From the UHGV virus genome UHGV-1616493: a DNA stretch of 10,396 bases; one strand, written 5' to 3'. The translations under genes and the position numbers were made by a program. Positions 1 to 10,387 of the stretch are shown in pieces (the first letter of the stretch is position 1; the number at the start of each line of letters is the position of its first letter). The notes under the pieces are model-generated. The model worked only from the letters and a program-made list of their open reading frames with translations, had not been told where the DNA came from and did no database searches. The stretch is from a virus.

Positions 1-17
1 AAGCAATGACCTGGTGG

Positions 18-182
18 TCCGTGACTTCCCTACGCTGGCATTATCCAGATCAGGTAATACGGGTATTTCTCAGCCTTCACAAAGAAGGGCACCCCGAGTC
101 ATGTACTATAAAATCAAAAGCTTGCGATTAATGCTCCTCATTAATCCCTGATCAGGATAGTAATGCCAGCGGGAAGTCTTGT
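18..182. repeat. Imperfect inverted repeat: arms about 18-53 and 148-182 flanking a roughly 94-bp core
   Basis: Left arm gtgacttccctacgctggcattatccagatcagg and the reverse complement of the right arm (cctgatcaggatagtaatgccagcgggaagtc) share GACTTCCC, GCTGGCATTA and CTGATCAGG blocks with small indels. Aligned by eye. Confidence 0.45.
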
Positions 183-290: not shown

Positions 291-926
291 ATGATGGATT
301 TACAAGCATGGGATAACATTATCTCTATCGCTTCGAATGCTGTAACAGCGTTGAGTGTGGTTGGCGGCGTCATCTTCGGAGGGGTTAAACTTCAGGAGAT
401 TGTGAAGACGAGAAAAATGGAGCGGGCAATTGATTCAGCAATCGCTCTTAAAGAAGAAATTGATAGCACCAGAAGCCGTTACAATCGTATGCGCTTTGAC
501 TTAAACCGCATTATGACTTTTCTCGACACACTGGCGAAATCAGGACAAAAAGCCGACGAAGAAAGCTATTATCATATTCAAGAATCCTTGAAAGATATGA
601 CGGAAAATACCTTTCGCATTGGTAGCTCTTTCATCAAGTTAAGTCACTATAATGTTCTGATTAAAAAGGTTTCCTGGGAGCCATTCAACGCCCTTCTTCG
701 ATCTTCTGGTAATACGCAAATAGCCATCTCAAAACTGATGACTCTCATCATGCAGGCTTTGCTTAAAGCACAGATAACACCAGAAGAATTCATGGCAATA
801 CGTAACGCTTATGATGAACATGGCGCAATGATGAAAGATGTTAATCACGCTATCTCTGGATTAGATATCATTAAATTTGACAATCTTTTTGACTTCAGCA
901 AAGTACATAAAAAAAGCCGGGATTAA
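291..926 (+). CDS. Membrane-anchored hypothetical protein (about 210 aa); candidate moron or exclusion/defence gene
   Basis: Intact ORF with tandem ATGs at 291/294 after an AAGAGG SD. One N-terminal hydrophobic helix (IISIASNAVTALSVVGGVIFGGV) then a charged, helical-looking soluble domain. Visibly more AT-rich than the neighbouring phage genes, convergent to them, with its own promoter and terminator. No family recognised. Confidence 0.7.
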   Translation: MMDLQAWDNIISIASNAVTALSVVGGVIFGGVKLQEIVKTRKMERAIDSAIALKEEIDSTRSRYNRMRFDLNRIMTFLDTLAKSGQKADEESYYHIQESLKDMTENTFRIGSSFIKLSHYNVLIKKVSWEPFNALLRSSGNTQIAISKLMTLIMQALLKAQITPEEFMAIRNAYDEHGAMMKDVNHAISGLDIIKFDNLFDFSKVHKKSRD

Positions 927-950
927 CCCGGCTCTCATGTTTTCAGTTTT
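909..950. terminator. Bidirectional Rho-independent terminator shared by convergent genes
   Basis: AAAAAAA, stem AGCCGGG (915-921), loop ATTAA (contains the TAA stop of the plus gene), stem CCCGGCT (927-933), then T-rich CTCATGTTTTCAGTTTT. On the minus strand the stem is followed by TTTTTTT. Confidence 0.65.
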
Positions 951-1147
951 CGTTGTCGCTGTTCGTTGAGGTAGTACCTAATAGCGCTGTCGAATCCATG
1001 CGTATGGATGCGGTCAAGTAGGCTGGAACGACTACACTCAAGCCTGCGTGCTAACGCTGACATGTTGATAATCGCATCATCGCCCTTGCCATCTAGAATC
1101 CACTGCATCAGCGGCATGTTGCCAGTACCGATCAAAGCTAATTTCAT
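935..1147 (-). CDS. Small hypothetical protein (70 aa), last gene of the minus-strand array
   Basis: ATG at 1147 preceded by AAGGAG with a 6-nt spacer; the ORF-track start at 1198 has no such signal. The N-terminus MKLALIGTGNM resembles the start of a dinucleotide-binding protein, followed by a short helix-turn-helix-like stretch, so it may be a gene remnant. Confidence 0.45.
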   Translation of the reverse strand: MKLALIGTGNMPLMQWILDGKGDDAIINMSALARRLECSRSSLLDRIHTHGFDSAIRYYLNEQRQRKLKT

Positions 1148-1209: not shown

Positions 1210-2226
1210 TTACGCCGCGTCATCCATCGTAATTTTCAAAACGAAGTCTGGACGCATTGGGATCTGAATTTGTGATAGCTCGCTGACCACCTCATAATTC
1301 ATGAACTTATCACGCAGAACGTAATGGTAAGACGGATAAACCGGACCATTAGCAACGTCAGCATGACGGCTCGCCGGAGTCTGGTAAGTCATATAAGGTG
1401 AAAGGTCGCCTTCAACAACATTGGAGAACGTCGCCAGCATGTAGCCTTCACCATCTGCAATGCCGTATAGCGGATCGTCAACCTGAACTACAGTTACGCG
1501 CCCGATGTTGTATCGATCATATGCGCCCAAAGTGTCAGGGAAAATGATGTCACGGGACGTAGCACCAAACAGAGCCGCCTGATATGCGGTTGGGTTGCCT
1601 TGAATGGCGGTGAAAAGACTCGGACTCGCTAGCAGATAAACCTGCTTGATGCTGGAAGACCAGCCACCCAGATTTTTCTTCAGCAGCGTGACAGCGTTCT
1701 GCATCTCAGTAATAACGTTGGCACTGATGCCAGTTTTCACCACAGCAGACGGCTGGTTAATACCCCAGAAGGTTTGCCAGTTCAGATCAGGACCTTCACG
1801 AAGGTGTGTCGCCTCTACAGTATTGTGAAGCAGGCTCTGCGCCATGGCATATTCAACATCACGGCGGGTTTGCAGGTAGTGCTTCAGGGTATGATTAGCA
1901 ACTACATCTTCAGCGGTCATCTGGCGATTTGTTCCCGGCTGACGTTTCCCCTGCCAATCCTGGCTGGTGATGGTTGAGCTGTAGACATGCAGTGGAGCCT
2001 GAACAGTCACGTTAGCCGCTTTAGGGAAGTTTAGACCGGACATTTCAGAACCATAACGGGCAACAGATTTGGTCACTTCACGCTGCACATCTTCCAGTGT
2101 GTCGAGCGCGATGATTTGCGTATCACTTGGACGGCTGGTAAAGATCCCCAGGCTGGACAGAAGGAACCCCTCGCCGCTTGGCTTCACAAACTGACCGGAA
2201 AGGTTAGTAAAATCACTTAATTTCAT
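1210..2226 (-). CDS. Phage major capsid protein, lambda gpE-like (338 aa)
   Basis: Size matches E-family capsid proteins (about 340 aa). It sits 18 nt downstream of a 120-aa decoration-like gene, as in lambdoid D-E pairs. The C-terminal ...PMRPDFVLKITM resembles the ...PDEFVSVQLA end of lambda gpE. GGAG SD upstream of the ATG at 2226. Homology recalled from memory, not searched. Confidence 0.6.
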   Translation of the reverse strand: MKLSDFTNLSGQFVKPSGEGFLLSSLGIFTSRPSDTQIIALDTLEDVQREVTKSVARYGSEMSGLNFPKAANVTVQAPLHVYSSTITSQDWQGKRQPGTNRQMTAEDVVANHTLKHYLQTRRDVEYAMAQSLLHNTVEATHLREGPDLNWQTFWGINQPSAVVKTGISANVITEMQNAVTLLKKNLGGWSSSIKQVYLLASPSLFTAIQGNPTAYQAALFGATSRDIIFPDTLGAYDRYNIGRVTVVQVDDPLYGIADGEGYMLATFSNVVEGDLSPYMTYQTPASRHADVANGPVYPSYHYVLRDKFMNYEVVSELSQIQIPMRPDFVLKITMDDAA

Positions 2227-2244: not shown

Positions 2245-2607
2245 TTAGATTGCAGTGTTTGCGTCAGCAATGCGGTTGCCTTGCTTAACAAGGGCAGCGT
2301 AAGCAGCATCTTTTGCAGCAGCCGCTACAACCAGACCAGATGGATTGAACACACAGCCACGGTCTGAAATGACCAGGCTACGGGCATCACCAGCGATTTG
2401 ATTTTGCAGAGCTACAGCACAGTTATCAGCATCGGCTGCAACGTATGCCGCGCCAGTGGTCGGGTTAATCACATCACCACAAGTCACATCAGCAGCCAGA
2501 TCAAAGATCACGGTGCGCTTATGAAAGATCGGGCTATCGGTATAAACCAATACATCCTGTGGGGTTTTGCTTTCATGTTCGAATGCCATATTTTGTTGTA
2601 TCTCCAT
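2245..2607 (-). CDS. Head decoration-like protein (120 aa; possibly 113 aa from the second ATG at 2586)
   Basis: Small Ala/Gly/Val-rich protein directly upstream of the capsid gene and translationally close to it; position and size match lambda gpD-type decoration proteins. No strong SD at the first ATG. Confidence 0.45.
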   Translation of the reverse strand: MEIQQNMAFEHESKTPQDVLVYTDSPIFHKRTVIFDLAADVTCGDVINPTTGAAYVAADADNCAVALQNQIAGDARSLVISDRGCVFNPSGLVVAAAAKDAAYAALVKQGNRIADANTAI

Positions 2608-2621
2608 GCAATTTTTATAAT

Positions 2622-2726
2622 CCGGCGAATATGCCGGGTTGTGTTGAAAAAATACCGTCCATCGGACGGCATTCTTTTATTTGTATTCCCAACAGAAAAA
2701 GAGCCGGAGGCAGGAAAACGCCTGCC
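2622..2726. terminator. Cluster of three hairpins directly upstream of the capsid genes; the middle one is a bidirectional intrinsic terminator
   Basis: CCGGC-gaatat-GCCGG (2622-2637); CCGTCC-atc-GGACGG (2655-2669) flanked by CATTCTTTTATTTG on plus and TATTTTTTC on minus; GGCAGG-aaaacg-CCTGCC (2709-2726) followed on minus by a T-rich run. Confidence 0.45.
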
Positions 2727-2760
2727 CCGGTTGGTAGATCATCGGAGATGATGAAATTCA

Positions 2761-2792
2761 CCCGTTTACGGGTTAGCAACATGCGTTGCTAA
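2761..2792. promoter_or_regulatory. Adjacent palindromes, operator-like
   Basis: CCCG-ttta-CGGG (2761-2772) followed by TTAGCAAC-atgc-GTTGCTAA (2773-2792), perfect 8-bp arms with a 4-nt spacer, in the untranslated leader between the 713-aa gene and the capsid genes. Confidence 0.3.
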
Positions 2793-3250
2793 TAGCTTCA
2801 CGATGGTATTTTCTGATGGAGAGATTTGGAAAGCATGATCGGCGGGTCACGCTTCAGGAATGAGGGAGCACAGCAGCGGGAGACCTCATATCTTCGCTGC
2901 CGCACTCAATGCCAGTTTTCGTCTGGCAAGACGGCCTTCCGAGGATGAAAGGCTTTGGCAAATCTCCGATCCAAGGTCGGAGAAAATCTTTTCTGATACA
3001 GCCAGCGGCAATGGCCTAACCTTACCGTGAGAGGGTGCGAATATTGGCTGTATGAGAAAAGGCGCTCTGGGAAAAGCGCACTTTGATTCCTAAGGAGAAG
3101 GGAAAACATTTGGCTGTTGTAATTCACCTTGTATATTATTTTAACACGAATGATTATCATTTGCAACAACAAAAACAATAACATGGCGAATTCAACGGCC
3201 CTCTCTCGTGTGGGCCAATTTGCTGCGCCATTTTCGACGGAACGATGATT

Positions 3251-5392
3251 TTAGTCTGCAATCCCAAGGATGAGGTTATTCTGCGCGTGGTTGTTCTCCC
3301 TTATCTTGGTATCAACCAGCCCTGCGATCTTATCGTCATGGACAAACACATCCATCTGCTGATTAATGTTCGCTTGCCCGGTAACACTGACAGGAATCGG
3401 CTGTCGCAGCGTCATGCTGTCAATTGTCGGAACCGTAAACGTCGGTTGCTGGGGTGTCAGATAGTTCAGGCTAGGAACATTCAACGCTAGCGCTGGATCG
3501 TTATACGCCGTGCCTGAGCCAATATTGCTCGGTGCTGAACTATCCAGCCACGGGTAAATCTGCTTAAGCGTCTGACCGATGCTACGTGGATCAAAGCCTG
3601 TCTTTTCCTTAATCCAATCGGCAGCACCGTTTGCAGATTCATCTACCACGCTCGTATACACCGCATCCGGCAATGTCGCGCCTTTCTTAAGTTCTTCTCC
3701 GACTCGACCAGAGAAGGAGAGAATGTTGGTGGTTAGCTCACCAAGGGCAACGCCGAGGGCATCGGAAATTGGGATCAGTCCAGTCATCTTCTGACGTAGA
3801 GTTTCAGTATTGGCAGCGTACTGCCCCAGGCCTTCAACAAACGAGGCTGAGAAATGATCTGCAAGGCTGGTTTGCACTCGGTTGTACTCAGCACCTAACG
3901 CCGCCAGTTTATCGAGGTTGGCTTGCTGCGCATCAGATAGGGTCCATCCTTCAGAAGAGAGTTGATGCATACGCTGGATAAGTCCCTGCCCCTCATCATT
4001 GAACACTTCGAGGAAGACCGAACCATCATTCACAGCCTCAGCCAGGTGCCGGGTCTGGTTGTCCGTCCATTTGAAAGTTTTCTGCAACTGTTTCAGGTAA
4101 GTGATGAAGGTCGGAAAATCCAGCTTTTGCAGTTCTCCGATCACCTTCTGTGCTACCTTCTGGTTACCGTTGGTGGAGGTCAGCACATTGTTGATGATAT
4201 CTGCGAACTCGCCACCGCCGCTGAAATTCACCTGTCCAGTTTTCTTGTTACGTTTGAAAGAGCCGGTGTTTAACAATTCCCCGGCCTTTTCGGTTGTGTC
4301 CTTGTTGAGGTCAGCCAGCTTGTCAGCACTCAGTGAGTAACCAACACGGCTCATCGAGAGATCCTGAAGTGCAGCGAACTCAAGGTTGCTGATCCCGTAC
4401 TGCTGGAGTTTTTTCACATCGCGAGAGCGCTCAAGGCTTCCCTGGAGGGTCTGACCGACACGAGAAACGCCCATACTACCCACTAACGACGCACCACCAA
4501 TAACACCAGCAGCTGCAAGACCAGCTCTACCACCACGGCTTTCTGTGCGTACACGACCAGCACGAACACCTGCGGCTTTCTGCTCACGGGTCATACGCTG
4601 TTGCAGACGAGCCTGCTTGCGTAATTCGGTGGTGATACGAGCCATTTCGAAGCGGGTCTCTTCAACCGTATAGCGCTCTTCTTTCTGGGCTTTAAGTGCC
4701 TCTTTTGCTGCACTGATGGCTTTGTACCGGGTTGCAACGTCAGCGCCGTTCACGTTTGCCAGAGTCAGAGCGCTACGGCGCAAACTGTTGTAATAAGTCA
4801 CCTCGCGCTTAAGGCCTGCCTCTTTCTCACGCTGACGCTTCTCCTCCAAGGCCATCGCCTTTTTGGTGGCTGCGATGTCAGCAGCAACAGCGCCGTGACC
4901 ACGGTTCATCGCTGCATTTTGACGTGCCACCAGAGATGGATCGGAGTGAACTCCAGGCATGTTGGGATTGTAGGTCATTGCACGGGAGCGACTCGCCTGT
5001 CTCACCTTGTCAGATATCGCTGCTAGTCTGGCATTCTGCCGTGCGGCCTGTTCCTGCTGGGATAACTGACGCGCCTGTAATGAGGTCATTTTATTAGCGT
5101 GGGAGACTGCATCCCGTTCCATTTTGGCTTGTATCTGAGCTTGTTTCTGTTGCTGTTTTGACAATTGTTCAGCCTGGCGTAGCTTCGCTGTCTGGGCTTT
5201 CGCTGCGGCTAGTGCTGCTTTGCCTTCACTCTGGACGGTCCGCTTCTGGGCCTTCTCAAGCGCTTTAGCTGGTTTCTCATGAGCAGCCTTAAGCGAGATA
5301 ATCTTCTTTTTGGCTTTTTGATATGAGGCATCGTCTGTGATCCACGAGATTTCATTAACGGTGCTGGTAACAATCTTATTTGTGCCAGACAT
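3251..5392 (-). CDS. Large coiled-coil protein with a Gly-rich hydrophobic segment (713 aa); tail tape-measure-like, alternatively scaffold or ejection protein
   Basis: The N-terminal roughly 250 aa are rich in A/K/Q/E/R as in coiled coils. The central GLAAAGVIGGASLVGSMGVS segment resembles the Gly-rich hydrophobic patches of tape-measure proteins. The ORF track starts at GTG 5395, but ATG 5392 overlaps the upstream stop as TGATG (translational coupling), with GGGGG upstream. Confidence 0.45.
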   Translation of the reverse strand: MSGTNKIVTSTVNEISWITDDASYQKAKKKIISLKAAHEKPAKALEKAQKRTVQSEGKAALAAAKAQTAKLRQAEQLSKQQQKQAQIQAKMERDAVSHANKMTSLQARQLSQQEQAARQNARLAAISDKVRQASRSRAMTYNPNMPGVHSDPSLVARQNAAMNRGHGAVAADIAATKKAMALEEKRQREKEAGLKREVTYYNSLRRSALTLANVNGADVATRYKAISAAKEALKAQKEERYTVEETRFEMARITTELRKQARLQQRMTREQKAAGVRAGRVRTESRGGRAGLAAAGVIGGASLVGSMGVSRVGQTLQGSLERSRDVKKLQQYGISNLEFAALQDLSMSRVGYSLSADKLADLNKDTTEKAGELLNTGSFKRNKKTGQVNFSGGGEFADIINNVLTSTNGNQKVAQKVIGELQKLDFPTFITYLKQLQKTFKWTDNQTRHLAEAVNDGSVFLEVFNDEGQGLIQRMHQLSSEGWTLSDAQQANLDKLAALGAEYNRVQTSLADHFSASFVEGLGQYAANTETLRQKMTGLIPISDALGVALGELTTNILSFSGRVGEELKKGATLPDAVYTSVVDESANGAADWIKEKTGFDPRSIGQTLKQIYPWLDSSAPSNIGSGTAYNDPALALNVPSLNYLTPQQPTFTVPTIDSMTLRQPIPVSVTGQANINQQMDVFVHDDKIAGLVDTKIRENNHAQNNLILGIAD

Positions 5393-5820
5393 CACACCCC
5401 CTGATTGATATCGTAACCCAGACGCTCAAGCGCGGCGCGTTGTTCAGGTGTTAGCTCATCAAGACTTGCCTTCATCATGAGACTTACCGGACGCAGATTA
5501 GCGCTATAACCTTGGGCTTGGTGGCACAGAGCGATCCCTTTTTCCTTGATGGTTTTACCACTTTTTGGGGCTGGCTCGCTGGCTGTTGCAGTCGAAGCGG
5601 ACAGGTAACTCTGCACCGCCTCCGCCAATGCTTCTTCAGCGGATTTGTTCAGATCTTCCGGTTCGTCTGTTCCTGCGGTCATTGCTTCCCGGATACTGGC
5701 GCGGATTGCTTCAATGTTATTCATATTGTTATGTTTCCTGTAGAGGTCCAGGCCGTCACGAAGCCATTGGAGAACAGCTACCGCTAACGGCAGAAAGGAT
5801 AAATATTCAAATAGGGTCAA
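5392..5820 (-). CDS. Hypothetical protein (142 aa from TTG 5820; alternative ATG at 5724 gives 110 aa)
   Basis: ORF in the same reading frame as the upstream 173-aa ORF, separated from it only by the TAA at 5839-5841. No ATG start at the 5' end; an internal ATG at 5724 has AGGAAA 9 nt upstream. N-terminal hydrophobic stretch, acidic Ala-rich middle. Confidence 0.45.
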   Translation of the reverse strand: MTLFEYLSFLPLAVAVLQWLRDGLDLYRKHNNMNNIEAIRASIREAMTAGTDEPEDLNKSAEEALAEAVQSYLSASTATASEPAPKSGKTIKEKGIALCHQAQGYSANLRPVSLMMKASLDELTPEQRAALERLGYDINQGV

Positions 5821-6374: not shown

Positions 6375-7121
6375 TCAGAAAGGGATCGAGTCATCATAAT
6401 CAAGCGGCAGCTCATCTGCTGGGGCGTTAACCTGTTGTTCTACTGACTCCGGTGCGGGTACATGATAATTTTGAATAAACAGATTCATGCTGTCCTCATC
6501 GCTGCTGATACCATGAGAGAGACAAAACGCTTTTGCTTCTTCATCCAGTCCCCAATTGCGCCATCGCCTCAGCTTGGTGCCTAATTGTTCATCGGTATAC
6601 CTATCAGAAGCGTTCACCGCATCATCATTGGCAGGTACATCAGCATCGACAGGAATATCCACAACAGGTAGGCCGTCTGGTTTTCCAGCAACAGGCGCGG
6701 CAGGTTCCACCACGAAAGATTCCACATCACGTTTCTGCTCATTCTTACCGCTCTCCTCGGTTTCCACTTTTCTATTACTCACCTGCGTGGAATTATGATC
6801 GTCAAGAAAAACCATCAACGATGGATCGAGTTCGACCGGAGAAATTTTGTGTGTTCTCCCCTGCTCTTCCTCAAAAGTGATCATTCCCGCTTCACGAAGC
6901 TTGTTCCTGAAATTACGAACGGCTTCGGGCTTGCAGCCGCAACGTTTACCAATCATGCCAACAGACTCGTAATAAGTTCTGCCTGTTTTGTCATAGCTGT
7001 AAACCAGAGATAGCAAAATTTTCATGTTGCCATTAATGGTCAGGCCGTTGTACTCGGTAAGGTCGAGAATGCTGTATTCAAGTTTTACAAAATCCTTACT
7101 GTCCCGGTTCTGTTTGCTCAT
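6375..7121 (-). CDS. Winged-helix-like DNA-binding protein with acidic C-terminal domain (248 aa); candidate replication initiator or transcriptional activator
   Basis: ATG at 7121 with GGAG and a 6-nt spacer. The N-terminal roughly 100 aa look like an HTH/winged-helix fold (GKRCGCKPEAVRNFRNKLREAGMITFEE); the C-terminal half is acidic and ends ...DELPLDYDDSIPF. Overlaps the upstream 67-aa gene by 26 nt. Confidence 0.55.
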   Translation of the reverse strand: MSKQNRDSKDFVKLEYSILDLTEYNGLTINGNMKILLSLVYSYDKTGRTYYESVGMIGKRCGCKPEAVRNFRNKLREAGMITFEEEQGRTHKISPVELDPSLMVFLDDHNSTQVSNRKVETEESGKNEQKRDVESFVVEPAAPVAGKPDGLPVVDIPVDADVPANDDAVNASDRYTDEQLGTKLRRWRNWGLDEEAKAFCLSHGISSDEDSMNLFIQNYHVPAPESVEQQVNAPADELPLDYDDSIPF

Positions 7122-7833: not shown

Positions 7834-8049
7834 TGGGTTCTCCGTTCTGTTAAAAGAATTATTCGCGGAGGTTCTATTTGTAACCCATTTTGTATTGCCG
7901 TGAGGTTGACAAGGAATGTCGTGATGACGGCAGAATTATTCGAGGATTCGTAGGTAAATCATTACCCTACTAAAATCTATTGTATCAGATTTGTTTGTAA
8001 ATAGCAATCATTATCATGTAGCATTTTATAATGCATAATAATCACCATA

Positions 8050-8078
8050 ACATTACAAGTTTAAAAAATCTTTGTCAA
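8050..8078 (-). promoter_or_regulatory. Candidate sigma70 promoter driving the minus-strand array
   Basis: On the minus strand: TTGACA (8078-8073), 17-bp A/T-rich spacer, TAATGT (8055-8050). It lies in an AT-rich zone (about 7960-8080) with several imperfect palindromes, roughly 210 nt upstream of the first gene. Confidence 0.35.
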
Positions 8079-8286
8079 TAGTGCTAGATCGTTCTGTGAC
8101 GCGTTCTGCGGGGACTCGTCGTTATAGCAGTACCATCGTGTTACCCACACCATTTAAACGCCGTAGAGAGGCGCTGAGGAAGTCAGTTAGACAACCCGCG
8201 CCGCCCCGGAGTGAACCGGACAGATGCAAAGCAGTCCTCTCCGCCGTGCTCCGATCCACATATGGCGAACAAGTTCGCAGCTTCCA

Positions 8287-8470
8287 CACAGAGTGAGAGC
8301 GTAGCTCTCTGGCGTAGCCTGTCGGGTTACCCGAGTCACAGAGCGTAGCGATGTGTTAACGAGGGTTAGAAGGTCACGAGATGGCGCGGCTGTTTCACGT
8401 CAGCAAAGGTGAGCTTCTTACCACAAACATATCTGAAGTGGCTGACCAGCCATTGCAGAGCGGAGCGATG
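8287..8470. repeat. Dispersed GAGCGTAGC-type motif copies in a GC-rich non-coding block
   Basis: CAGAGCGTAGCGATG (8339-8353) and CAGAGCGGAGCGATG (8456-8470) match 14/15. GAGAGC-gta-GCTCTC forms a perfect hairpin at 8295-8309, and GGCGTAGC occurs at 8311-8318. Confidence 0.45.
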
Positions 8471-8581
8471 CAGAAGCATCACTATTAAAACTAACAGAAT
8501 GACCAACCGTCATTCCGTGCTCTCGACCTGGAGGTACTTTTCTTATCAGTTCTTTTATGGAGATTGTTATTTATTATTATT

Positions 8582-8672
8582 GTGCTCGAAAATCGACTAC
8601 CCCCTACTCGAAAATCGTGCAGGTAGGTGCTCGAAAATCGAGGGGGTGGGTACACGAAAATCGTGCAGGTAT
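8582..8672. repeat. Iteron-like array: four copies of CTCGAAAATCG phased at 22-23 bp, next to an AT-rich tract
   Basis: Copies at 8585-8595, 8607-8617, 8630-8640 and 8653-8663 (the last is CACGAAAATCG). Alternate units carry TCGTGCAGGTA (8615-8625, 8661-8671); the others carry inverted ACCCCCT (8599-8605) and AGGGGGT (8641-8647). AT-rich tract at 8541-8583. Confidence 0.6.
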
Positions 8673-9964
8673 CACCGGGTGAGAATTTTCCAAGTCATCC
8701 AAGCGACCAACGCACCGATGAAAACTTCTGGTTTGATATGTCCGCGTCATGCTTCAATGGCACAATCGACGGCAACACCTGAGGCGGTCCAGGCACCTGA
8801 TCCGCTCCGAGAATTGATCATCTCCCTCCCCCGCTTTCATCTGAAAATACCGACCATTCTCCGCGCTGGCTGAAGATTGGCAACCCTATACTAGTTTTCT
8901 GTGAAAATTTGGTGGATGATCTTTATCATTGGCTATCCTGCGAACAAAGTAGATTAAATACACCTCAAATAGCCTATAATCCGTAGTTAATCATGCTAAA
9001 GTGGTCACTAAACGTACAAATCACAAGTTTGTACCTATGGGCGTTATGGTGTGGTGCATGCAGCGAAGCCAGTAATGGCGCGGCCTAGGCGAATCCGCCA
9101 ATTGAATGGGTGCTAAACACAACCCACTTTCTGAACCATCTTTTTACAAAAAATAAAAAAGACACATTAAAACTAAAACAGATGTCCTCTGGTGGTTCCT
9201 GTATCGCGCTGTGGGATGTCGTGGATTATCGGTACGTCAGTTTACATCTGGGGGGATAACGCACTGTAGCGCTTCTGGTGGAGCGTAGAAGGGATTGGTG
9301 GGTTGGCTGTTTACATTGTTTTGGGAAATGGTACGAAACAGTGGCGGTCAGGCTCGTGAATATCACCAGGTGATGGCAGACCTTCAGCCCGTTGTGGTAA
9401 CGTCGGTGTAGTGGCTTTGTGTCTGCTGGTAAACAGAAAAAAGTGCTTTTATGGCGTTTGACACACTGGCAGCCTCAAAGGTCTGAAACCTGAAATTGTG
9501 TGGTGACCAGGCAAACTCATCCAAAATCCTTGAACAAGAGAACTCACCTCGAATCCTCCTGAATGCTTTCCTTCTGTTGGTGAAATCGCTGTTGTGTACC
9601 CAGCTTCGCGTCAACGTTCCGAAAAGTAATACCTGACCATTCCAGTCAAGTACTTATAAGAACCATTATGTTAAATAGACCAGAAAACGAACAGTAGAAT
9701 GCCCTATTGCGGCAAGTTTTCCCTGCTGTGATGCTCTACGGGATGAAGTGGTGAAATACGTTACTGGGCCTGTCGGCTCTGCGATATTTCAGCAAGAAGA
9801 TAAGAAATTATTGAGGGATCGTCTGTCACGTCAGGCACCTGGCCCAGAGAGCCGTAAGATATTTTCAGCAAGAGCATGTAAGCTGGATCGTCAAATAGCA
9901 GGGACATCCATGAGGTGGGGTAGATGAGTTGCCGGGAATTTTACCCGGCAGACCGTATGACAGA

Positions 9965-10387
9965 TTAGTTAAAGGTGCAGTTTCCGCCAGACGGTGCACC
10001 GATGAAAAACTGCATCTTTTCGCAAGTCACGGTGATCTTCTGGCCCTTTTCCAATTTCGACGCTTTCGCCTTTTCTGAATCAGACATACTCAGACTGACT
10101 GGCATGAAGCGATTACCGCTTTCAAGTTTAAGAACTACATCATCCGTGAAATTTTTTGTTATGTCCTGTACAGTTCCGGTTACTTCCACCTTACGACCAC
10201 CAATTTTGTCATCGGCTGCAACCTCGTTAGCTTTATAAAGTTCAGCCAGAGCTAGTGCTTTTGTACGGTAAATTGCATCATCAGAAGCTGGCACTTTGGG
10301 TTTACTATCGGCAACCTGCGATTGTTCCGGATTAGTCATACTAGGGAAGGTGCGAACAAGTTCCTGATATGAGATCATCATATTCAT
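9965..10387 (-). CDS. OB-fold (tRNA_anti-like type) domain protein; N-terminus may lie beyond the window edge
   Basis: The motif pattern ...LYKANEVAADDKIGGRKVEVTGTVQDI...KLEKGQKITVTCEK... matches my memory of the tRNA_anti-like OB-fold family. The frame stays open from the ATG at 10387 to the window edge at 10396, so the real start may be upstream. Confidence 0.5.
   Translation of the reverse strand: MNMMISYQELVRTFPSMTNPEQSQVADSKPKVPASDDAIYRTKALALAELYKANEVAADDKIGGRKVEVTGTVQDITKNFTDDVVLKLESGNRFMPVSLSMSDSEKAKASKLEKGQKITVTCEKMQFFIGAPSGGNCTFN

Follow-up and report, generated by a model that had tools for sequence, protein, structure and literature searches.

The 713-residue protein encoded on the minus strand at positions 3251-5392 of a 10,396-nt stretch of UHGV virus genome UHGV-1616493 (the window, analysed here at its full length) very probably belongs to the tail tape measure protein (TMP) family. 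An initial annotation had guessed at a tape measure from the composition of the protein, and this guess is now borne out by homology, by profile matches and by fold matches. Rather than a phage, the element that carries the gene is an integrated, satellite-like chromosomal island of 13.4 kb, and the chief interest of the finding lies in this context, a satellite-like island supplying both a capsid shell and a tail ruler.

Homology, fold and architecture of the tape measure homologue

A tblastn search with the 713-residue protein (the target) against 50,697 phage genomes matched 14 records. The best matches were the Klebsiella myoviruses KP13-16 and FBKp34 (amino acids [aa] 307-564, 31% identity, E 5e-31), and pairwise BLASTP of aa 307-568 against the product of KP13-16 gene 00073 gave 31% identity over 262 aa (E 7e-38). 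This 647-aa phage gene occupies the canonical tape measure slot. Upstream of it lie the sheath (phrog_205), the tube, a tail assembly chaperone (Phage_TAC_15, E 1.7e-21) and a 73-aa gene, and downstream follow Dit_like (E 3.3e-29), the Pam3_gp18 plug, the hub gp41, the spike and Baseplate_J. In KP13-16 the head genes form a separate module, with the portal, a 446-aa scaffold-slot gene (phrog_2970), and genes for decoration and capsid proteins; since KP13-16 has a scaffold-slot gene of its own, the TMP homologue is not the scaffold of this phage. A homologue of the target from a related island aligns end to end with the KP13-16 TMP (98% of length, E 4e-22) and also matches an FKP3 gene annotated as tape measure. 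A further homologue, from a metagenome, has Dit_like and Pam3_gp18 genes downstream of it.

Among 1.84 billion representative proteins, HMMER found only 59 relatives of the target, about 25 of them full length (578-732 aa), and 23 of these share 24-33% identity with it. A family set of 27 sequences was assembled from the target, 25 full-length relatives and the KP13-16 protein. All eight PHROG families matched across this set are described as "tail length tape measure protein", with phrog_2854 matched by 17 of the 27 members and phrog_16051 by 10 (best E 7e-97); no Pfam domain recurs across the set. The search for remote homologues proposed in the initial annotation thus leads to TMP families and to no scaffold or protease family, and no confident homology to a non-virion family, which the same annotation had named as grounds for abandoning a virion role, was found.

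Structure prediction from the single sequence was poor (pLDDT, the predicted local distance difference test score, of 46). With a 26-sequence alignment, AlphaFold gave confident long helices and a confident core at aa 320-490, separated by a disordered Gly/Ala segment. A Foldseek search of viral models (BFVD) returned five matches below E 1e-3, the best of which (E 6.8e-9) carries no description, and the described matches in the viral top 50 are tape measure or tail proteins except for three entries named "Uncharacterized protein". The structural comparison suggested by the initial annotation therefore supports a tape measure among viral models and finds nothing significant in the PDB, where Foldseek with the better model gave no match below E 1.7.

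Some of these results weigh against the assignment. The target's own matches to PHROG TMP families, four in number, are weak (E 8e-14 to 9e-4), and scans of the target against Pfam-A (E <= 0.01) and NCBIfam matched no model, including TMP models. The mean pLDDT of the full-length model obtained with the alignment is only 64, and its TM-scores to viral TMP models are low (0.2-0.25). A PDB sequence search with the target returned non-significant matches only ("tube initiator", E 0.59; NifN, E 0.98).

The gene runs from an ATG at 5392 to a stop at 3251, and its product corresponds to RefSeq WP_016247347, which appears in databases as "hypothetical" or "chemotaxis protein". An identity as a methyl-accepting chemotaxis protein, the NCBI name, was rejected, as no Pfam family matches at E <= 0.01 and there is no domain support for it; the name probably derives from the low-complexity helical region. 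The target shows the architecture typical of TMPs, with a conserved N-terminus, a variable helical region, a Gly/Ala segment, a helical core and a conserved C-terminus. Its regions, all encoded on the minus strand, are as follows.

5273-5392, minus strand: aa 1-40, N-terminal motif conserved in the family, N13 nearly invariant (alignments, regional identity)
4574-5332, minus strand: aa 21-273, long predicted helices rich in Ala, Gln, Lys and Arg (AlphaFold)
4439-4555, minus strand: aa 280-318, Gly/Ala-rich, mildly hydrophobic segment of low confidence (pLDDT <50)
3923-4435, minus strand: aa 320-490, conserved helical core, the part shared with phage TMPs (pLDDT 82-91)
3563-3691, minus strand: aa 568-610, mosaic 43-aa module (...SANGAADWIKEKTGFDPRSIG...) shared with TMPs of otherwise unrelated myoviruses

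Across the family, the N-terminal 40 residues, the core and the C-terminus are conserved; the core residues D361 and E452 are invariant in the 26-sequence alignment, and K383 is also invariant in the 27-sequence alignment. The lowest identity falls at aa 41-140, which contains most of the family's insertions and deletions and up to 100 gap columns, and this length-variable stretch is a putative ruler segment. The Kyte-Doolittle maximum over 19 residues is 1.57, at aa 291, within the Gly/Ala segment, and about 21 of 26 family members have a hydrophobic Gly/Ala segment in the corresponding relative position. The description of the protein as Gly-rich in the initial annotation holds locally, at aa ~280-318, and fails for the whole, with glycine at 7.0% overall. 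Its "coiled-coil" character finds support in the long AlphaFold helices (aa 21-138, 152-212 and 219-273) and none in a simple heptad test, in which the 3.5-residue hydrophobic periodicity was not significant (z = -0.1 and 1.8), so the term is at best loosely true.

The 43-aa module shares 63% identity with the TMP of Klebsiella phage Mulock, whose gene follows a G/GT chaperone pair. It is also present in ZCEC13 and SEN34, and is replaced in the close homologue P0122. The pattern in these alignments points to ordinary phage-style mosaicism in the tape measure gene pool; a blastn search of the phage collection found no match that would indicate recent DNA exchange of the module with phages. Exchange of segments between islands is also evident, as divergence of the TMP gene region by region, in comparison with the sister islands L003, L016, L019 and L002 (L numbers denote the sequence records compared here), shows recombination between islands. 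Against L016 the target is near-identical at aa 321-612 (dS 0.09-0.15) and saturated at aa 41-280; against L003 it is close only at aa 491-612. These patterns indicate that TMP modules recombine frequently among islands.

In its overall design the target resembles the TMPs of large contractile-tailed phages with E217/Pam3-type baseplates (KP13-16 gene 00073, Stephanstirmvirinae; FBKp34; FKP3). It has in common with the KP13-16 TMP the core, the N- and C-terminal motifs, a similar length (713 versus 647 aa) and the layout of regions, and differs from it in a longer helical region and in the 43-aa module, which it shares with Mulock-type TMPs. The two genes also differ in their surroundings: the KP13-16 gene lies between the chaperone and the Dit-like, plug and hub genes, whereas the target has no such neighbors and sits in a 13.4-kb island. 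In Pfam and PHROG scans of the island open reading frames (ORFs), no tail context of this kind (chaperone, Dit, hub) was recognizable beside the target.

The island and its relatives

Two complete E. coli chromosomes match the window at 100% identity, and carriers of the island include E. coli AREA_C483 and TC24 (NZ_CP123310, NZ_CP171637). In NZ_CP123310 the element is bordered by thiM and rcnR, with a copy of the thiamine pyrophosphate (TPP) riboswitch on each flank, and 71-nt direct repeats, 96% identical, stand 13,369 bp apart in the complete genome (L001 12030-12100 and 25399-25469). Integration takes place in the TPP riboswitch that precedes thiM and leaves two copies of it: a complete one is retained beside thiM, and the second is found at the far island end, beside the integrase. 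An 11,845-bp Logan contig shows no terminal overlap, so that a circular or episomal form is not supported. The features of the island that fall within the window, other than the target gene, are listed below.

30-100: left attachment-site repeat, inside the thiM TPP riboswitch (10-106, minus strand; Rfam TPP, 73.6 bits)
291-926, plus strand: 211-aa accessory gene at the island edge
935-1147, minus strand: small helix-turn-helix (HTH)-like protein, 70 aa, after the capsid gene in every lineage examined (alignment)
1210-2226, minus strand: lambda E-like major capsid gene, 338 aa, product WP_016247345 (phrog_29, E 2.5e-9)
2245-2607, minus strand: lambda D-like head decoration gene, 114-120 aa, product WP_016247346, adjoining the capsid gene (Pfam HDPD E 6e-4, below the curated cut-off)
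2608-3250, minus strand: ORF-free spacer of 643 bp ahead of the decoration and capsid genes
5392-5724, minus strand: 110-aa ORF coupled to the TMP gene (TGATG)
6375-7121, minus strand: replication-initiator-like HTH protein, 248 aa (Pfam HTH_36, E 4.6e-4)
8582-8671: three to four iteron-like direct repeats with ~23 bp spacing, candidate replication origin
9965-10387, minus strand: OB-fold (tRNA_anti-like) protein, full gene at L001 21965-22717 (PHROG "superinfection exclusion Sie-like", E 1.2e-22)

Read along the island from the integrase end, the gene content comprises a tyrosine integrase, a few small genes, the OB-fold protein, a region of ~2 kb poor in ORFs that holds the iteron-like repeats, a 148-aa ORF, a 67-aa ORF, the HTH initiator-like protein, a 173-aa ORF, the 110-aa ORF and the target. 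Past the target come the spacer, the decoration gene, the capsid gene, the 70-aa HTH-like protein and one gene on the opposite strand. Scans of all island ORFs against Pfam, PHROG and NCBIfam detected no portal, terminase, protease, chaperone, sheath, tube or baseplate gene. As the island lacks most virion genes, it probably borrows the rest from a helper phage; and as the element is not a phage genome, arguments drawn from lambda gene order do not apply to it.

The capsid protein is about 24% identical to myovirus capsid proteins over 97% of its length, and matches nearly the full Pfam Phage_cap_E profile at E 0.0028, which is below the cut-off. No pairwise similarity was found between the island decoration protein and that of KP13-16. 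The initiator-like protein matches DnaD-like and replication-initiation families in PHROG (E 5.6e-6 to 3e-3), and its homologues in sister islands are tagged DUF6945. The iteron-like repeats, with a TGCTCGAAAATCG core, lie within the ~2-kb stretch without annotated genes (window 7834-9964), and are probably the origin for the neighboring HTH/DUF6945-type initiator. An ORF-poor stretch occupies the equivalent place in distant island lineages, and an Rfam scan of 7834-9964 found nothing. The island edge that carries the 211-aa gene looks like a variable cargo or defense slot, because a sister island has DarT/NADAR at the equivalent edge (L023 8998-10351).

In the contigs examined, most divergent members of the TMP family lie within compact integrative islands with the same gene set. 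A typical sister island begins with an integrase or an integrase fragment, an ORF-poor stretch, an HTH_36/DUF6945-type protein and small genes, and continues with a decoration-sized gene, a Phage_cap_E capsid gene, an HTH-like protein of ~65 aa and the TMP homologue, after which the island ends. The same compact layout is seen again in islands whose proteins share 24-33% identity and which differ in integrase and attachment site. Islands closely related to that of the window occupy tRNA-Thr and tRNA-Gly sites with different integrases, and one of them carries DarT/NADAR cargo. The ancestral module appears to have been decoration-capsid-HTH-TMP, because homologues of the small HTH-like protein occur in all lineages; in the window lineage the TMP gene and the coupled 110-aa ORF are found upstream of the decoration-capsid-HTH module instead.

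A Dit_like gene adjoins the TMP gene in two lineages, L006 and L022. One such Dit-like protein shares 30-34% identity with its counterparts in 130-154-kb myoviruses of Escherichia, Klebsiella, Citrobacter and other hosts, and 296 phage records match it. In the metagenomic record L022 (8192-11294), Dit_like lies directly upstream of a 732-aa TMP homologue, together with HNH endonucleases and an integrase fragment. No capsid gene is detectable by Pfam in this element, which may represent a version of the island type with tail genes only.

The small HTH-like protein, of 60-70 aa, has a conserved LNxSALARxxGxxRST motif and is also encoded at L006 9748-9927, L013 9792-9989, L020 9810-9998 and L021 9739-9936; in most lineages its gene lies between the capsid and TMP genes. 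Pfam and PHROG scans gave no match for it, and, judging from its motif and position, it could be a packaging-specificity or regulatory factor.

The spacer ahead of the decoration and capsid genes contains a sigma-70-like promoter at 3166->3138 (TTGCAA-17-TAAAAT with an upstream TG), and, even in comparison with a divergent sister island, no other block of the spacer is as well conserved as this promoter-like site. It is followed by a structured leader of ~500 nt with terminator-like hairpins at 3079-3062 and 2728-2707. By analogy, the layout resembles a late operon with a promoter and terminator under antitermination, as in lambda pR'-tR'. The spacers of two sister islands (window 2608-3250, L003 7733-8402) both contain a hairpin of ~38 nt (GCTATTAGCAAC..GTTGCTAACCCGTAAACGGGTG), whose position differs between them as if it were a small mobile insertion.

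The upstream ORF ends in CAG GGG GTG TGA, and the ATG of the target lies inside the resulting TGATG, giving a 1-nt stop/start overlap; the translational coupling reported in the initial annotation is correct. An in-frame GTG at 5395 would give 714 aa for the target in the ORF listing. Reading of the sequence just ahead of the upstream ORF's stop codon showed no canonical slippery heptamer for a G/GT-type -1 frameshift. In the 110-aa ORF, the last 50 residues match the N-terminal part of phrog_2970, the family of the 446-aa KP13-16 gene in the scaffold/protease slot (E 2.7e-16), and BLASTP of the ORF against the KP13-16 scaffold-slot protein itself was not significant. Among the matches listed, its 95 homologues are 82-168 aa long, with all named sources being Enterobacterales, and 91 of the 95 carry the precomputed Pfam tag PF26210. 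A role for this ORF as a tail assembly chaperone was considered and rejected, as it matches no chaperone profile and gives no convincing alignment to small ORFs that precede TMP genes elsewhere.

The target gene is widespread, occurring in Enterobacter, Klebsiella, Cronobacter and other genera, and is intact in >800 database proteins from many Enterobacteriaceae. Its ratio of nonsynonymous to synonymous substitution rates (dN/dS) against seven island orthologues is 0.09-0.26 and, as judged from these values, purifying selection acts on the gene. The gene region was found in 38 of 5,426 complete E. coli genomes, every time as a single chromosomal copy; in 13 of these genomes the match covered at least 80% of the query. 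A search with a three-sequence alignment matched two species-representative genomes, those of Pseudenterobacter timonensis and a Buttiauxella metagenome-assembled genome.

Roles proposed for the island protein

We infer that the island is a phage satellite, and we think it probable, with distinctly less confidence than attaches to the family assignment, that it builds chimeric virions with its own shell and with its own TMP in a helper tail. Infection by a helper myovirus, probably a large virulent rV5/phi92/E217-like phage, would be followed by replication of the island from the iteron origin. The island capsid and decoration proteins would form a small shell around the portal and packaging machinery of the helper, while the helper chaperone would load the island TMP into a tail made of the tube, sheath and baseplate proteins of the helper. 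By analogy with P4, SaPIs and PLEs, a small shell of the T=3 or T=4 type suits a genome of 13.4 kb. The conservation of the TMP termini across the family suggests that the partners of the protein are not encoded by the island. In the assembled particle the island TMP would set tail length and help DNA delivery through the envelope, and the outcome would be chimeric virions like those of the Vibrio PLEs. Under Katsura's ruler rule, each residue accounts for ~1.5 Å of tail (cited in PMC12987554), and at this rate the tail would be ~10 nm longer for the 66 residues by which the target exceeds the KP13-16 TMP.

The proposal of chimeric virions has several points to contend with. There is no known helper phage. 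No tail assembly chaperone or baseplate hub is recognizable in the island, though PLEs carry both together with their TMP. The closest phage relatives of the capsid protein and TMP are only 21-31% identical, and no sequenced phage is therefore an obvious partner.

An alternative that we regard as unlikely, though the strongest of those considered, is that the protein is a TMP-derived decoy, which enters or blocks the tail assembly of the helper and cuts helper yield as a form of abortive defense, and which is dispensable for island particles. Satellites commonly interfere with helper assembly; the Rta protein of PLE11 targets the helper TMP (PMC12987554), and PICIs carry tail-assembly interference systems (PMC11364771). 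The lack of a chaperone and a hub in the island would suit such a function, as would the DarT/NADAR defense cargo of sister islands and the Sie-like OB-fold protein of the window island. However, the termini, the core and the length-variable helical region are conserved under purifying selection, which fits a working structural protein better, and the constant linkage to the capsid gene, joined in two lineages by linkage to a Dit-like gene, points to virion building. The decoy and structural roles are not mutually exclusive and could coexist.

A function in head assembly, as a scaffold or capsid-size determinant in which a TMP-like helical protein has been co-opted to assemble a small shell, appears improbable. 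The initial annotation had raised a scaffold or protease-scaffold on the strength of position, and position does lend it something: in every island lineage the TMP gene is next to those for the decoration and capsid proteins, the island has no other scaffold candidate of normal size, and the coupled 110-aa ORF shares its 50-aa segment with the family of the KP13-16 scaffold-slot gene. The order and common strand that the annotation described for the target and the decoration and capsid genes are as stated, but "directly upstream" is loose, since the 643-bp ORF-free spacer intervenes and, with its own promoter-like site, separates the target from those genes. Divergent islands place the TMP gene after the capsid gene, so that its position is uninformative and the argument from position falls. 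The target also has no homology to scaffold or prohead protease families in Pfam, PHROG, NCBIfam or the PDB; its phage homologues lie in the tail module, with a separate gene in the scaffold slot, and a Dit-like tail gene neighbors the TMP gene in the two lineages named above. A scaffold-protease of the lambda C/Nu3 type was rejected, as no S49, S14, S78 or scaffold family is matched and the island has no portal. The resemblance to lambda gpC/Nu3 consists of a gene that precedes D-like and E-like genes with a common orientation; it does not extend to sequence, profile or fold, there is no portal upstream, and the order is not conserved among related islands.

The possibility of an ejection or internal virion protein, also raised in the initial annotation, is accommodated by the tape measure assignment, because TMPs are themselves ejected and an ejection protein is thus not a separate option; nothing points to a protein internal to the capsid. 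That the gene is a leftover of a decayed prophage without current function is very improbable: the few virion genes of the island and the sparse occurrence of the gene region in complete E. coli genomes would fit decay, but the intact ORF across many genera, the low dN/dS, the recurrence of the same compact architecture in divergent islands and the intact attachment repeats do not.

Comparison with other satellites and significance

The closest parallel to the role that we favor for the target, a ruler placed in the tail of a helper phage, comes from Vibrio cholerae, where chimeric tails selectively incorporate the TMP of a PLE, which makes them 10 nm shorter (PMC12987554, Nature 2026). In both systems the satellite TMP is distant from the phage TMP, with 20% identity between PLE11 and ICP1 and 26-31% here between the target and its nearest phage relative, and by analogy the island would share with PLEs a probable dependence on a virulent myovirus. 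The two differ in what is encoded and what is borrowed: PLEs encode a chaperone and a baseplate hub and use the capsid protein of the helper, while the island encodes its own capsid and decoration proteins. The function of the PLE TMP has been shown, whereas that of the target is only inferred, and the likeness drawn here is one of gene content and proposed role. A TMP is also carried by the EPIP satellites of Mycolicibacterium (PMC12822802).

With the cf-PICIs the island has in common that it is an integrative satellite with its own major capsid protein, and putative tmp genes are present in some cf-PICIs (PMC12987554, Extended Data Fig. 10). The cf-PICIs, however, encode a portal, a protease, head-tail connectors and TerS, none of which is detectable in the island by Pfam and PHROG scans, and the island also differs in pairing a lambda E-like capsid protein with a D-like decoration protein. 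No island ORF matches the Sid, Psu and Delta proteins or the alpha primase of P4-like satellites, or the AlpA and primase-replicase of classical PICIs; the island instead has structural genes and an HTH/DUF6945-type initiator. The element thus fits none of the four SatelliteFinder satellite families. A search of full-text literature found no description of this island type, and as its coverage was incomplete the type may still have been described.

A broader proposal, which we advance tentatively and hold to be possible rather than probable, is that the window represents an unrecognized satellite family of Enterobacterales, outside the P4-like, PICI, cf-PICI and PLE groups, which remodels both ends of the particle, placing its own shell around a portal and packaging motor taken from the helper and its own ruler inside the helper's contractile tail. 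Its only virion genes would then be those for the lambda E-like capsid protein, the D-like decoration protein, the small HTH-like protein and the TMP, and its likely helpers would be large virulent rV5/phi92/E217-like myoviruses.

In conclusion, the gene is annotated in hundreds of Enterobacteriaceae genomes as "hypothetical" or "chemotaxis protein", and recognizing it as a TMP homologue on a satellite-like island corrects this. Control of tail assembly by a satellite has been shown only recently, in the Vibrio PLEs. If the reading offered here is true, an unrelated enterobacterial island that pairs a TMP with capsid and decoration proteins would mean that combined head and tail remodeling arose more than once. 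The hosts include E. coli, Klebsiella and Enterobacter, which makes the system tractable for studying the choice of a foreign ruler and the assembly of a foreign capsid on a helper portal. Islands of this type also carry defense cargo, as with DarT/NADAR in one sister island, and if their helpers are large virulent myoviruses they could influence how well therapy with such phages works.

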